A stretch of 27,732 bases of DNA, taken from positions 62,001 to 89,732 of IMG/VR virus record IMGVR_UViG_3300037067_026584; one strand, given 5' to 3'. Within the stretch, counting starts at the first letter, position 1. Each line of letters opens with the position of its first letter. The notes beneath the pieces are model-generated. The model was given only the letters and a program-made list of their open reading frames with translations. It made no database searches and was not told the origin of the DNA. The stretch comes from an uncultured virus (IMG/VR IMGVR_UViG_3300037067_026584). Lineage: Duplodnaviria; Heunggongvirae; Uroviricota; Caudoviricetes. Position numbers and translations under genes: made by a program. This document shows positions 8,977 to 15,992 of the stretch, one piece after another.

Positions 8977-9624
8977 TCAAAACTCCGACTTGACAACCGC
9001 ACCTTTGAACGCCGCATCGATCTGGTCGTCAGGGAATCCCATGCTTTGCAGTTCTTTCCGCAAAGATTCCTTTTCATCGGAGATGATATCGTTAATTTCG
9101 ACATCCCCACTGTCGGATTCAATACCCCACAGTCCTCCAGACTGAACGACAATGGAATTGAGACAACGCCCGGCTACGCTGATCGATACGGTAGCATCCA
9201 CTTCGATACCGATATAGTACCAATCCCCACGGGTGAGACCTTCAAACCGGTTGTAGTCTTCAAGAGCATACGCATAGTCAGCTTTTTTCAGACTACCGAA
9301 CTTCTCCCGTACAGCCTTTTTATCGGCACGGGAAACGTGCTTCCAGTTATCCGGGTTGTGCGGAATGTGGTTGGCCGGCCGGAATCCCACGTATTCGTTT
9401 GAATACAAGGGAATGTCAGGCTCCTCTTTGCCAATGAACCGTCCGTTGGAATCCCGCTCCATTTCCGTTGGGATACGCTCATAGAACTCGTCATATTTTC
9501 GAATGACGACCCCGGGCCCGATATCATCGGTATACCTTCCCAAGTACGACGTATCGGGGTCGTTGTCTATCATTCGCTTTATACGCACCTGTTCAATTGC
9601 AAGAACGACATTTTGAGTTATCAT
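8977..9624 (-). CDS. conserved viral hypothetical protein (DWYYIGI...GGLWGIESDSG)
   Basis: Start at ATG 9624 after GAGGAG/GAGG SD. Track ORF 8977..9654. Confidence 0.75.
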   Translation of the reverse strand: MITQNVVLAIEQVRIKRMIDNDPDTSYLGRYTDDIGPGVVIRKYDEFYERIPTEMERDSNGRFIGKEEPDIPLYSNEYVGFRPANHIPHNPDNWKHVSRADKKAVREKFGSLKKADYAYALEDYNRFEGLTRGDWYYIGIEVDATVSISVAGRCLNSIVVQSGGLWGIESDSGDVEINDIISDEKESLRKELQSMGFPDDQIDAAFKGAVVKSEF

Positions 9625-9637
9625 TGCCCTCGTCTCC

Positions 9638-10006
9638 TCACGATTTCTTTGCATTACGGGGAATGCTCCCGCCGCGATTCAAAATTTTATTTTCTAGTTC
9701 CTTATGCGGATACAGGGAATGCAAAATTCCGGTTCTTTTTGCGGATCCTGCTTTGCACATACCCCACTCTACAAAATGGGTTTTGGGATCTATCTCGTAC
9801 ACTATTTCCTGTATCGCGTGGTGAAGATTCGAATCCCCACCTTCGCACTGCTCGGAGTACGCGTACTTCCTGCAAATACTTTCAGATTCAAACGGGCCGA
9901 GTAAAAAGCTTGTTTTTCTCCCGTCTCTGATGGTAACATAAAATGCTGGACTCGTATCCGGGGCGCACAATTCAATCCGTTCAACTACCGCAGAAGTCAA
10001 TTCCAT
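9638..10006 (-). CDS. hypothetical protein (FYVTIRDG...LLGPF)
   Basis: 122 aa, AGGAG SD. Confidence 0.7.
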   Translation of the reverse strand: MELTSAVVERIELCAPDTSPAFYVTIRDGRKTSFLLGPFESESICRKYAYSEQCEGGDSNLHHAIQEIVYEIDPKTHFVEWGMCKAGSAKRTGILHSLYPHKELENKILNRGGSIPRNAKKS

Positions 10007-10018
10007 GATTTCGTCTCC

Positions 10019-10309
10019 TTACATGATCCGTACGACTGCTTCACCGGGGGAATTAGAACCGGCTGGACGGCGGTAGATCATGTGTTCCCTGAGATCAACA
10101 ACAAATTCGCGTATTTCCGTATCCTCATCATCATTGGGGACGGTTTGAAAAACAAGCCTGTTCACATTGGCATCAATTATCCTATGCCTCCCTCCGGTAA
10201 ATGTCCATAGACCCGGAGGCTCATCCATACGTCCCCTCTCGTCAGGAACCGGGGCTATAAGGAACGTAAAAGAGAATTCGCTGATCAATTCACGATCCAT
10301 GGTCTTCAC
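10019..10309 (-). CDS. hypothetical protein
   Basis: 96 aa, GAGGTGA SD (start may be ATG 10300). Confidence 0.7.
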   Translation of the reverse strand: MKTMDRELISEFSFTFLIAPVPDERGRMDEPPGLWTFTGGRHRIIDANVNRLVFQTVPNDDEDTEIREFVVDLREHMIYRRPAGSNSPGEAVVRIM

Positions 10310-10310
10310 C

Positions 10311-10580
10311 TCACGATCTTACTGCGAGCTCGTACTTCTCAAGCATCGCGTCCAGCTTGCGCTCAAAATCGTCCGCTTTCAAACGAGCATTCGTATTCCC
10401 GCCATCGATACTATTAAGATGCTTCCCTGTCGTTGCACCCCAGTAGTTTTCGGAAACAACCTTCCCATAGCCCGGGCTGTAAAACGCTACGCACGTTTTA
10501 TAGGAGAACCAGAGGACAAGCTTCCCGATGGTAACCCTGCTCAAATTATGTACAGAAATGTCTATTTCAACTGTCTGCAT
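10311..10580 (-). CDS. conserved viral hypothetical protein (FSYKT.VA...YWGATTGKHLN); first gene of the early operon
   Basis: 89 aa. The SY.T.(I/V)A...TT.KH motif recurs in phage small proteins (recall). Confidence 0.8.
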   Translation of the reverse strand: MQTVEIDISVHNLSRVTIGKLVLWFSYKTCVAFYSPGYGKVVSENYWGATTGKHLNSIDGGNTNARLKADDFERKLDAMLEKYELAVRS

Positions 10581-10595
10581 TGTTATACCGTCCTT

Positions 10596-11157
10596 CCCTC
10601 ACGCTGAGGGTATACCTTACCCCGGATTTGACCCGGTGACAGCAATAACGAAGATAGTTCCCGCTATCCTATCGGGTAAGGCAATTCAGAATTCTCAACC
10701 AGTGCGCAAAGCCCCGGCACTGTATCGGGGGGAGTTGATCCGGCAGGATGAGTTGCAGCAGTTTTCTCTCTTCACGTGCTCGTACCGCGTCCCGTGACAT
10801 TACTACATCAGATATGGATCGTCTCTTTATCGTCATGTGGCTAAAGTGCCGTGTGCTTGACGCTTGGAGCTCTCATCTCCCATATCATCCGGTTGTGTCC
10901 CGGGGATACGCTCACGATCAATTCATGAGGTTGCCGCTACTCCTGTACGACAGGAATAGCATTCTCGACAACGTTCCTGATCCGTGCTTTTCCGCTCAGT
11001 CGTACAAGGGAAGGGAGTTGTGAATCCATGCAAAGCAACATGGTACCCTTTTGTTCCATCATCCCGCAAAGGCGGGAACCTGTACCCATTAAGCCGCTAT
11101 CTTATTTCCCGGATCCCCCGGTTTTTTCTCGGTCTACTGGTTTGCACCTTCTGATGA
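10596..11157 (-). ncRNA. candidate ~550-nt structured non-coding RNA or long 5' leader
   Basis: No minus-strand ORF >=60 aa. Lies directly downstream of a BRE-TATA promoter. Contains several hairpins, an H-type pseudoknot and a tRNA-like fold. Confidence 0.5.
10613..10683 (-). ncRNA. 71-nt tRNA-like element lacking an anticodon arm
   Basis: Acceptor-like TGCCTTACC/GGTAAGGTA, D-like AGGATAG-CGGGAA-CTATCTT, T-like CCGG-GTCAAAT-CCGG. Confidence 0.55.
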
Positions 11158-11178
11158 TCCTTATGTAGGATCCCTGAG

Positions 11179-11209
11179 ATAATAAAGATTTCGCTTAATG
11201 AATATTAAG
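11179..11209 (-). promoter_or_regulatory. archaeal BRE-TATA promoter with an upstream palindrome
   Basis: Minus strand GCGAAAT-CTTTATTAT. Palindrome CTTAAT-N4-ATTAAG at 11194-11209. A second palindrome GATCCT-N5-AGGATC at 11156-11172 covers the expected TSS. Confidence 0.65.
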
Positions 11210-11259
11210 GGAACCCTACGCAGAAATCTATGCGGACATACAATTTAACGTTTTTTCAG

Positions 11260-11400
11260 TCGATTGCCACGGAAAGGGCCCCGGCAGCCCGCCGGGAGGC
11301 ACGATCCGGGAGACCGGCAACCCGGAAATATACCCGGAGTGCCCCGGGGAGCGCACATTAAAAGAGCATTCCAGAAAACCGGACGGGATCCGGCAATCGA
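11260..11400. repeat. CCGG-rich segment bounded by a 9-bp inverted repeat
   Basis: TCGATTGCC (11260-11268) and GGCAATCGA (11392-11400) flank a stretch with nine CCGG tetramers. Confidence 0.5.
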
Positions 11401-11530
11401 TCACGGATCCTGACCATATCAGTACGAAACTGCATTTTTACAAAGGCCCAAAACAGGGGTTCTTTCACTTTCCAAGTATAAACATACGATCAGGTACGAG
11501 ATCTGGGCTAGAAACCAGCCTGGCATCGAT

Positions 11531-11740
11531 CTATCGCATAATATCGACACCAAGAACCCATAGAACAATGTAAACCACCAGGATTCCCGCTGCCAAAAGC
11601 CACATCGTTCTGCTGGCCCTCTCAAGAAACAATACTGGGGTCCTGGGGGATACCGCTACGATCGCGTACCGGATCCCTACGAAAACACATCCAATAAAAA
11701 ATAGTCCAAAAATTATAGCTATGATCAAATTGTAGAACAT
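11531..11740 (-). CDS. small two-TM membrane protein
   Basis: 69 aa with two hydrophobic segments. Follows 11750..12145 closely. Confidence 0.65.
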   Translation of the reverse strand: MFYNLIIAIIFGLFFIGCVFVGIRYAIVAVSPRTPVLFLERASRTMWLLAAGILVVYIVLWVLGVDIMR

Positions 11741-11749
11741 AGAACCAGG

Positions 11750-12145
11750 TCACTCTCTTCGGGCCCGGTCCCTGCTCTGCTTTCTCTCTTCCATCCTCTT
11801 GACAAGCCTGTCTTCAAGATCATCCTGATATTTTTCAAGCTCGTCAATCATGCGGTTTACCGTTTCAGACTCTGAAATGGCCTTTTGAGCCACAGTCCGC
11901 ATATCTTCGATCGCTTCGCGGACCCTGGTTATTTCAGCATCGATCTCGTTCGCCACATCTGCGGCCCGATCGTCATCCTCTTCGGTCCGAATGGAATCGA
12001 GCCGATTAGAAAGATCCACCAGGATGTACGACTTGACATCGGTTGCTTTGTTCTTCAGGTCTTCAAACACCTTTGACAGATCTTCCAGACGATCTTCGAT
12101 TACTTTTCCGACTATTTTTGAAACAATCGACATTCTTTTCACCAT
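11750..12145 (-). CDS. coiled-coil protein
   Basis: 131 aa, charged helical heptad-like pattern. Confidence 0.75.
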   Translation of the reverse strand: MVKRMSIVSKIVGKVIEDRLEDLSKVFEDLKNKATDVKSYILVDLSNRLDSIRTEEDDDRAADVANEIDAEITRVREAIEDMRTVAQKAISESETVNRMIDELEKYQDDLEDRLVKRMEERKQSRDRARRE

Positions 12146-12708
12146 CCTTCATAATCTTCGCAACAATTTTCAAGAGAATCCACGTCATCGGGAGTCTGCC
12201 CCTGTGAAGTTTGCTCCAGAGAGCTCGCAGTTACATTCCCCTGGCGAGGCGGCTGCTGCGAAACCACGGTTGCTACCCGCCTCGAAGACACACCTGCATT
12301 CAGCACGTACATCGGAGTTTTCTTGGCCGGCTGCAAAACCAGCTTCTTTGAAACCCCAGATATCGGGGATAGAGACTCGTGAGTACCTCCCAGCACAGGA
12401 GATCCAAGCGTCTTCTGCGGAGTGGTAGAAACTGGAGACAACGATTCCAGTGCACCTCCCCATTGCGGAGGAGCCAGCGAATTCCCCTGTTTTGGCGGCA
12501 GGCCAGGACCGGTCTCAATGCCAACTATCTTCGGTGGCAGCCCCGGGCCGGTCTCAATGCCAACCACATCAGGTGACTGCCCCGAAATGGTTTTTCTTTC
12601 TTCAATACCACCGGGTGCTAACCCACGCCCAGGGGCGGGATTGGCAATTACATCAGACGGGCTTCCCGTAAACAGCCCGCCACTCTTTAAAGACTCTTCG
12701 GTTGCCAT
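12139..12708 (-). CDS. Pro/Gly/Ser-rich, probably disordered protein with internal repeats
   Basis: VVGIETGPGLPPK/IVGIETGPGLPPK tandem, plus GGALESLSPVS/GGTHESLSPIS. Confidence 0.7.
   Translation of the reverse strand: MATEESLKSGGLFTGSPSDVIANPAPGRGLAPGGIEERKTISGQSPDVVGIETGPGLPPKIVGIETGPGLPPKQGNSLAPPQWGGALESLSPVSTTPQKTLGSPVLGGTHESLSPISGVSKKLVLQPAKKTPMYVLNAGVSSRRVATVVSQQPPRQGNVTASSLEQTSQGQTPDDVDSLENCCEDYEGW
12491..12568. repeat. 39-bp imperfect in-frame tandem repeat, 2 copies
   Basis: CCGGTCTCAATGCCAAC recurs at 39-bp spacing. Confidence 0.8.
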
Positions 12709-13245: not shown

Positions 13246-13562
13246 GATAACACCATCATAAGTCTTCCCGTAGTAGTTTTTGCATACGCATCTACCATGA
13301 GAGTAAGCACAGCATTCAAGTTTCTTTCCACTTCCGCCGGGGTAAGCGCCCCGTGAATCCACGTTGGATAAATTCGAACAGCTGGTTCCCCCTCCGGCCC
13401 GGTGCCAACCCCTGCAATCGGAGCATTAAGAAACGTACCAAGATTTCTGCCTGAAGACGAATAAATCGATCCTCCGTCTTCCAGCAACGGAGAGTCGAAA
13501 TATATGTCCACAGTTTTCCCGGCTTTCAACCGGTCTACTACCTGCCGGGTCGTGAGTATCAT
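13242..13562 (-). CDS. hypothetical protein
   Basis: Start moved to ATG 13562 (MILTTRQVV). An AT-rich TATA-like stretch ~25 nt upstream suggests a leaderless mRNA. Confidence 0.6.
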   Translation of the reverse strand: MILTTRQVVDRLKAGKTVDIYFDSPLLEDGGSIYSSSGRNLGTFLNAPIAGVGTGPEGEPAVRIYPTWIHGALTPAEVERNLNAVLTLMVDAYAKTTTGRLMMVLS

Positions 13563-13587
13563 ACAGAAAAATGATGGAAGATAGTAT

Positions 13588-15713: not shown

Positions 15714-15756
15714 GTCACTTTTCTATGAAGTGTCACAGCAATAAAAGTTTTCTTTT
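15713..15756 (-). promoter_or_regulatory. probably leaderless promoter of the recombinase, with an operator-like inverted repeat
   Basis: Minus strand AGAAAA-CTTTTATT ~27 nt upstream of the ATG. TGTCACTT-N7-AAGTGTCA (15713-15735) overlaps the expected TSS. Confidence 0.55.
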
Positions 15757-15920
15757 CTGCATAATTAAGAGAAATTTCTTGCAAAAAGAAAGATCGTGCA
15801 CCCGGGGAAAAGAGCCGTCTTTCTATCCCTGGGGCACTCGGGGAAATCCATTTGGCTATGGGATTGGTTGGACGATTTTTAGAACAACTGAATCATTCCG
15901 TCTTACGTGTCTTCTGAACC

Positions 15921-15947
15921 GTGTTGTGTGCGGATCTCACACAACAC
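15921..15947. other. perfect 10-7-10 inverted repeat; candidate recombinase core site
   Basis: GTGTTGTGTG-CGGATCT-CACACAACAC, ~200 bp upstream of the recombinase gene. Confidence 0.45.
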
Positions 15948-15992
15948 ATCTTAATTGTCAATTATAAAAATAAAGTTTCCCATTGCGGAAAA

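Follow-up and report, generated by a model that had tools for sequence, protein, structure and literature searches.

Why does a gene-packed virus genome leave several hundred nucleotides (nt) without a gene behind a recognisable promoter, and what could those nucleotides do? The question is raised by an uncultured virus of the Caudoviricetes (IMG/VR record IMGVR_UViG_3300037067_026584). The window analysed in this work is the last 27.7 kb (27,732 nt) of this 89,732-bp virus record, and "genome" denotes the whole record. The region in question lies on the minus strand at window positions 10581-11157, between a promoter motif and FSYKT, the first gene of an operon. An initial annotation of this DNA, made from the letters alone, described the region as a single ornate non-coding RNA (ncRNA) of about 550 nt or a regulatory leader that is transcribed first from this promoter. 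The region is genuinely non-coding and unusual, and the best reading of it, which we hold tentatively, is a structured 5' leader. The evidence that carries this reading is the lack of coding signal, the promoter motif, the lack of terminators, and the local stability of the predicted fold.

Coding status and promoter motif of the gap

The region is part of a 950-nt gap (10581-11530), which extends beyond the interval initially annotated; no longer stretch of the genome lacks a credible gene. The next-largest gaps in the open reading frame (ORF) map measure 387, 347, and 297 nt. Coding potential was scored with a hexamer model that had been trained on 92 genes of this genome (training mean 0.36). 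The features that bound and divide the gap are as follows.

10311..10580, minus strand: FSYKT, the first gene of the operon (89 aa); hexamer score 0.36; match to phrog_5643 at E 3.7e-9 and to PF26096 by the database's precomputed label
10581..11157, minus strand: predicted untranslated leader of about 575 nt, which is the region initially annotated; no coding signal and no T-run
11154..11157, minus strand: predicted transcription start; the 32-nt spacing described below, applied from 11186, gives about 11154
11179..11194, minus strand: promoter motif of the B recognition element (BRE)/TATA type, GCGAAA followed by TCTTTATTAT; the sole TATA-like motif on either strand in 10300-11700
11531..11740, minus strand: last ORF of the upstream gene block (69 aa, hydrophobic) and upper bound of the gap; hexamer score 0.13; no family match

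The lack of coding signal in the gap is observed directly. No ORF in the gap has a hexamer score above 0.11, and that of the upstream 131-aa gene is 0.52. All six frames contain 10-15 stops each, and recoding was rejected since the stops are of mixed type in every frame. None of the 12 ORFs in and around the gap has a Pfam or PHROG match better than E 0.026. The FSYKT protein that follows the gap has seven homologues at 48-66% identity, with alignments that begin at residue 1. Exact matches of the region elsewhere in the genome do not exceed 13 nt, on which ground an antisense target or a repeat was rejected, and the region contains no tandem repeats. The initial annotation had seen no convincing coding sequence here. 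This agrees with the low hexamer scores, the absence of family matches, and the absence of a credible homologue, and the conserved internal ORFs that it had considered as a counter-indication did not appear in the family and homologue searches. By these measures of its sequence, the region is non-coding.

The promoter motif is likewise a direct observation. A loose BRE/TATA expression was scanned across the genome and gave 27 matches, many of which lie inside genes. An ORF of at least 45 codons begins 15-60 nt downstream of 13 of the 27 matches. The ATG stands exactly 32 nt after the first T of TTTA at three of them, which precede the integrase gene, a 235-aa gene, and a 99-aa ORF. This 32-nt spacing is, as judged from the sequence, the layout of leaderless archaeal mRNAs. 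The motif at 11179-11194 has a purine-rich BRE followed by an 8-nt T/A box, the pattern that stands 32 nt before those three ATGs, and its sequence thereby fits an archaeal BRE/TATA promoter. A sigma-70 scan flags the same spot with 9 of 12 matches. That the region lies directly downstream of a clear promoter, as initially stated, is borne out by the motif being the only TATA-like one in 10300-11700 and by its pattern recurring in the genome.

No start codon is found at the expected 32-nt spacing behind the gap promoter. The next ORF of at least 60 codons is FSYKT, and the distance of 606 nt to it is the longest among the 27 matches. No run of at least four T is present on the minus strand between 11300 and 10500. 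The interval between promoter and gene thus has no oligo-T terminator, and read-through into the gene would be compatible with this. Since the start codon at 32 nt and the terminator are both lacking and FSYKT is 606 nt away, a transcript with about 575 untranslated nt is predicted.

Predicted folds of the region

The sequence elements that the initial annotation had named are all present on the minus strand; a pseudoknot given without coordinates and a tRNA-like fold are treated separately below. The elements, in the direction of the predicted transcript, are as follows.

11086-11082 and 11046-11042, minus strand: GGTAC and GTACC, which flank TCCCGC-CTTT-GCGGGA
11062..11077, minus strand: hairpin UCCCGC-CUUU-GCGGGA, 6 bp, mean pair probability 0.95
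11022..11048, minus strand: hairpin GGGU.CCAUGU-UGCUUU-GCAUGG.AUUC, pair probabilities 0.84-0.95
10999..11008, minus strand: CTTGTACGAC / CUUGUACGAC, a competing partner of the loop and 3' arm of the hairpin at 10960-10936 (inverted repeat I4, 15 nt, 80%)
10866..10972, minus strand: four hairpins that abut without linkers, including GCUAUUCCUGU/ACAGGAGUAGC, in the fold of 10864-10974
10960-10936, minus strand: hairpin GCTATTCCTG-TCGTA-CAGGAGTAGC, the TCGTA-loop hairpin of the initial annotation
10613..10683, minus strand: Y-shaped module with a 10-bp closing stem, a long hairpin, and a short hairpin, pair probabilities 0.93-0.98
10592..10610, minus strand: hairpin CCCUCA-GCG-UGAGGG (CCCTCA/TGAGGG at 10610-10596), which overlaps the purine tract AGGGAAGG

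The fold of 600 nt has a z-score of -2.72 on the minus strand, where none of 100 shuffles is as good, and of -1.65 on the plus strand. The base-pair probabilities describe a set of well-defined local elements rather than one large architecture. The stability of the parts was compared with that of shuffled sequences, and the minimum free energy (MFE) is given for the two main modules.

10864-10974, four-hairpin block: z -4.17 on the minus strand and -1.26 on the plus strand; MFE -44.7 kcal/mol; none of 200 shuffles as good; MFE structure 43% of the ensemble
10608-10688, Y-shaped module: z -3.59 on the minus strand and -1.17 on the plus strand; MFE -31.6 kcal/mol; none of 200 shuffles as good
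11020-11090 (71 nt), block with the UCCCGC-CUUU-GCGGGA hairpin: z -1.67 on the minus strand and -0.81 on the plus strand
10702-10851 (150 nt), middle of the region: z +0.71 on the minus strand and +0.79 on the plus strand; no better than shuffles

The local stability of the two modules is observed directly in these comparisons. The single ornate RNA of about 550 nt that had been proposed is not borne out by them. Well-defined pairing is confined to two modules and a few hairpins, with 150 nt in the middle that behave like shuffled sequence.

Two predicted pairings involve the tract just before the start codon. The CCCTCA/TGAGGG hairpin ends 16 nt before the FSYKT ATG at 10580. In the MFE structure, the purine tract AGGGAAGG is paired with CCUUCCCU at 11014-11007, and this pairing belongs to an interrupted long-range helix of 16 bp that joins 11014-10995 to 10608-10592 with a probability of about 0.7. 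The local hairpin at 10610-10596 and the long-range helix are both predicted over this tract from a single sequence. A third pairing had been pointed out initially, between an upstream segment and the loop and 3' arm of the TCGTA hairpin. The inverted repeat of 15 nt at 80% shows that this segment can pair as described.

The pseudoknot of the H type fared less well. The sole candidate for a loop-to-flank pairing is the loop 11037-11032 of the hairpin at 11022-11048, which complements AAAGCA at 10990-10985, and a complement of 6 nt is of chance size.

The tRNA-like fold corresponds to the Y-shaped module. Its closing stem contains CCUUACC paired with GGUAAGG, and its short hairpin CCGG-GUCAAAU-CCGG, with a 4-bp stem, runs straight into GGUAAGG. 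The module resembles tRNA-like structures and the tRNA domain of transfer-messenger RNA (tmRNA) in that the closing stem is stacked on the T-loop-like GUCAAAU hairpin. It differs from them in that it has no D arm, no anticodon arm, and no CCA end. The T-loop consensus has a U at the first loop position, on a 5-bp stem next to a 7-bp acceptor stem, and the module has a G at that position. ARAGORN found no tRNA or tmRNA in the region at its default and mildly lowered (-ps) thresholds. At a threshold of 70%, 10613-10687 is among nine calls in 1.1 kb and is drawn with a mismatched acceptor stem. An Rfam search of 10300-11500 with E up to 10 gave no tRNA hit. What had been called a tRNA-like fold is thus a Y-shaped module that neither ARAGORN at default nor Rfam at E up to 10 recognises.

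The only hit of that Rfam search is sR12 at 10779-10831 on the minus strand, with 18.9 bits against a gathering score of 38 and an E of 0.26 for the 1.2 kb searched. This archaeal C/D box small RNA was treated as a chance hit because of its score below the gathering threshold and because no clear terminal D box was visible by eye. A comparison with Rfam, which had been suggested initially, therefore returned nothing at gathering score and this single hit below it.

A proposed long 5' leader and its alternatives

The elements above can be arranged into a long untranslated 5' leader of the FSYKT operon that spans 10581-11157 on the minus strand, a reading that we put forward with somewhat less than even confidence. 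Transcription would start at about 11154-11157 from the archaeal-type BRE/TATA promoter at 11179-11194, and the transcript would continue into the gene at 10580 with no terminator in between. The leader would bear stable strand-specific modules, which are the four stacked hairpins (10972-10866) and the Y-shaped module (10683-10613). The 3' end of the leader would hide AGGGAAGG in either of two mutually exclusive pairings, the local hairpin at 10610-10596 or the long-range helix with 11014-10995. The segment 11008-10999 may instead pair with the loop and 3' arm of 10960-10936 and so compete with the long-range helix. Switching between the exclusive pairings would set the level of translation of the first gene or the stability of the transcript, as far as a single sequence can indicate. 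We infer the transcript, the start site, and the regulatory switching from these predictions. The regulatory leader of the initial annotation is consequently retained as the best reading of the sequence, and its new class of ncRNA is unproven.

Long 5' untranslated regions (UTRs) of methanogens are comparable. Those of Methanolobus psychrophilus and Methanosarcina mazei are alike in having an archaeal BRE/TATA promoter followed by a long leader, in the parts of the published accounts that were used here. Stem-loops that mask ribosome-binding sites have been predicted in the long 5' UTRs of M. psychrophilus, whose mapped 5' UTRs have a median length of 55 nt and a maximum of 497 nt in the part of that account used here (PMC5378194). 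The leader in this work differs in that it is predicted from sequence and in that it belongs to a virus whose other recognisable promoters look leaderless.

Several points weigh against the leader reading. With about 575 nt, the leader would surpass every 5' UTR mapped in M. psychrophilus, of which the longest has 497 nt in the same part of the account (PMC5378194). A weak GTATAC about 34 nt before the FSYKT ATG could be a second, proximal promoter. The module boundaries were picked after the fold had been viewed, which inflates the z-scores given above, and a genome-wide calibration was therefore made. Among 448 minus-strand windows of 200 nt (mean z -0.47, standard deviation 1.21), the three that cover the region take ranks 252, 19, and 34, and their combined rank is 24 of 446. 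The 200-nt stretch 10601-10800 has a z-score of -0.18, and the middle of the region is no better than shuffles. In a composition-adjusted scan of both strands with 110-nt windows, the four-hairpin block is 13th among non-overlapping windows, and the 12 windows elsewhere that score equal or better are mostly coding. The region appears from these folding scores to be among the more structured 1-5% of the genome, though it is not unique.

The remaining points concern comparison and host. No diverged homologue of the region was retrieved in the sequence collections searched, and no RNA run is listed among the sequencing runs that carry the stretch. The contig L059 is 99.96% identical, with 3 differences in 8,267 nt and none in the region. 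With so few differences, its identical region says nothing about constraint. We infer the host domain only from the promoter architecture, the structural lead of the family B DNA polymerase (PolB), and the sample sources.

The strongest alternative is that the gap acts mainly at the level of DNA, as a spacer and control region that holds the end of the upstream block, protein-binding sites, and the promoter, with the RNA hairpins being incidental. We regard it as rather unlikely. It draws on a group of sites ahead of the promoter.

11281..11393, upstream of the promoter: GC-rich CCGG array of nine sites at 8-14 bp spacing, with one gap of 35

No other CCGG cluster of the genome is as dense as this array, which has 9 sites per 150 nt (next-best 7, genome mean 1.1). 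Five of the 51 GGATCC sites of the genome lie within 11111-11671, and partly inverted repeats (pairs I5, I7, and I10) flank the promoter. The genes for a ParB-like protein and an integrase lie 2.5-4 kb upstream. The CCGG and GGATCC clusters and the inverted repeats may be binding sites of a regulator or of the ParB-like protein, and the finding that coding regions elsewhere equal the structure scores of the region also agrees with incidental hairpins. However, the clusters lie mostly upstream of the promoter and outside 10596-11157, so that the roughly 575 gene-free nt downstream, in a gene-packed genome, are left unaccounted for. The minus-strand folds of both RNA modules are also clearly more stable than their plus-strand counterparts, which DNA sites would not require.

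A stand-alone or processed stable ncRNA of about 0.5 kb, which would form a new class and could be released by cleavage at the Y-shaped module, is unlikely. It would account for the promoter with no ORF behind it and for the well-defined four-hairpin block, whose MFE structure makes up 43% of the ensemble. The closing stem of the Y-shaped module (7-10 bp) is stacked directly on the short hairpin, in which GUCAAAU resembles a T-loop, and a second promoter without an ORF start is present at 15974. However, a T-run terminator is lacking ahead of the gene, ARAGORN at default and Rfam call no tRNA-like element, the middle of such an RNA would be unstructured, and neither a family match nor a homologue was found.

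The broader idea of a new class of ornate ncRNA is possible but unsupported, and we give it a low probability. GOLLD and ROOL, large ornate RNAs common in phages and prophages to which the initial annotation had referred, are alike in being large multi-hairpin non-coding stretches in viral genomes; both names are tied to phages in the part of the literature used here. The region differs from them in that it matches none of 4,227 Rfam models at gathering thresholds and, the chance hit to sR12 aside, none at E up to 10. Presumably the GOLLD and ROOL families are included in Rfam. The region differs further in that the genome of this virus has no tRNA genes and in that the structure signal is modest and patchy. 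A more specific form of the idea is very unlikely, namely that a large viral RNA is transcribed from the promoter at 11187 and that host RNase P or RNase Z separates it, at about 0.5 kb, from the rest of the operon mRNA by a cut at the Y-shaped module, which leaves an FSYKT mRNA with a short leader. Such release would parallel the maturation of some eukaryotic long RNAs. If it were true, the product would be a stable modular ncRNA of a class not yet described in archaeal viruses.

Small fast-evolving genes that the gene models missed are still less probable as an explanation of the gap. The candidates are a 91-aa ORF on the plus strand (10748-11023) and ORFs of 50-55 aa on the minus strand. 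ORFs of 46-91 codons are indeed present on both strands, and several of the 33 small ORFs (60-119 aa) in the greedy ORF map are likewise near zero on the hexamer model. Against this, the hexamer scores of the candidates are -0.19 to -0.05, family searches matched none of them, and they lack a convincing Shine-Dalgarno motif or promoter in front. The 55-aa and 50-aa ORFs on the minus strand have no homologue among 5.8 billion clusters and are absent from predicted-protein records. The 91-aa ORF is not in the representative library itself and has two weak multi-stretch hits among 1.84 billion representatives (E 6e-5 and 1e-4).

The weakest explanation, which we consider highly improbable, is that the Y-shaped module is a tRNA-gene remnant, such as the phage attachment site (attP) of the integrase, or that the gap is a replication origin. 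In its favour are the tyrosine integrase gene of the virus, the likeness of parts of the module to an acceptor stem and a T arm, and the inverted repeats on either side of a moderately AT-rich patch at 11121-11240. Against it, an exact search of 185,579 species genomes for the 22-nt T-arm/acceptor pattern found no match and so gives no support for a tRNA-derived attachment site, Rfam gives no tRNA hit at E up to 10, and a perfect palindrome lies in a separate non-coding region of the integrase, 4.5 kb away. An origin in the gap appears unlikely from the sequence, since the GC-skew extremes lie near 20.5 kb and 62 kb of the genome and the gap lies at 72.6-73.5 kb, and since the AT-richest 80-nt window in the gap has 64% AT as compared with up to 80% elsewhere.

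The virus, its relatives, and its other gene-free spots

The virus record carries direct terminal repeats of 127 bp, and near-identical DNA is present in landfill and groundwater metagenome runs. Nearly all genes of the window are on the minus strand. The replication genes encode PolB, PrimPol, XPD-like and superfamily-2 helicases, an MCM-like ATPase, and a topoisomerase. Two DNA methylases, a tape-measure protein, the tyrosine integrase, and the ParB-like protein are also encoded. Most other proteins of the genome have no family match. ARAGORN found no tRNA gene in the whole genome, the window included, and Rfam 15 (4,227 models) gave no family at gathering score in the window or in the remaining 62.5 kb. 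The structural lead of PolB is to a mostly archaeal cluster (Methanobacteriota). The promoter architecture, this lead, and the landfill and groundwater habitat together suggest an archaeal host.

Along the genome, the cumulative GC skew is lowest near 20.5 kb and highest near 62 kb (window position ~1), a pattern that suggests an origin near the former and a terminus near the latter. Next to the minimum are a divergent promoter region, the PrimPol gene, and several windows that are among the most AT-rich.

The virus is, by sequence comparison, an orphan in the collections searched. A search of viral contigs with the FSYKT protein gave no relatives, and blastn of the 950-nt gap against 50,697 phage records gave no match. 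An FSYKT homologue at 66% identity (P0002) lies on a 17-kb contig. An alignment of three FSYKT sequences found three loci in metagenome contigs (one copy at 99.96% and two non-syntenic phages), none in species genomes, and four non-syntenic loci with a GC content of 25-58% in viral contigs. The FSYKT-anchored loci L060, L061, and L063-L066 show no synteny with this virus. The 225-aa neighbour gene was found at 42 loci at 45% identity or less, with only that gene in common; one of these, L012, has an additional weak match to a second gene of the window. The gap found nothing at these 42 loci with blastn and nhmmer. The 466-aa protein of the structural region has no relatives in viral contigs or phage records. 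The exact 25-nt hairpin pattern is absent from viral contigs, and the single-sequence covariance models of the two modules (R1 and R2) gave only self-matches in 715 kb.

A search with PolB gave two records at 59% identity that have 2-3 proteins in common with the genome, and neither has the gap or FSYKT. In these two viral contigs (L048 and L049), which have almost nothing else in common with this virus, the PolB match covers 3,360 nt for 798 query residues. This suggests an insertion, such as an intein, in their copy.

All three differences of the metagenome contig L059 lie within 37 nt (13458-13494), inside another gene-free gap at 13363-13587. Strain variants are present in landfill runs. 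Four DNA runs gave one contig, of 11.8 kb and from a landfill run, which has 62 differences over 9600-12150. Among the 40 of 68 entries listed for it, none lies between 10175 and 11686, where unlisted ones may lie. Of the differences, 38 fall in 9631-10174 (544 nt, 7%), as compared with about 24 in the next 1,975 nt. The two genes in 9631-10174 have 23 of 35 differences at third codon positions. On this pattern, the contig seems to have acquired a more diverged allele of these two small genes, just downstream of FSYKT, by recombination.

Two other non-coding spots of the window were recorded. On the minus strand at 15714-15992, no ORF starts behind a second BRE/TATA-like motif at 15974; a perfect 11-bp hairpin comes next, with a T-rich stretch near 15785. 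Another BRE/TATA motif, at 15745, precedes the integrase ATG by 32 nt. The plus strand of 15714-15992 is among the most structured 110-nt windows of the genome (adjusted z -3.72). The stretch may be a small RNA or an attachment-site region. The second spot is a 222-nt gap at 2503-2724 on the minus strand. It contains the hairpin AACGG-TTCGAAT-CCGTT at about 2545-2561, which has a perfect T-loop-like sequence, and neither ARAGORN nor Rfam calls a tRNA there.

To our knowledge, the regulatory RNAs of archaeal viruses have been little studied. The other recognisable promoters of this virus sit directly before start codons, and a transcript whose first 575 nt are free of genes would stand out among them. 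The value of the finding is limited for now, since the virus is an orphan in the collections searched. The region is better regarded as a promising target for transcript mapping than as a discovery. As such a target, it would be a concrete site at which the control of an operon by RNA, or a viral ncRNA, may be found in methanogen-rich habitats.

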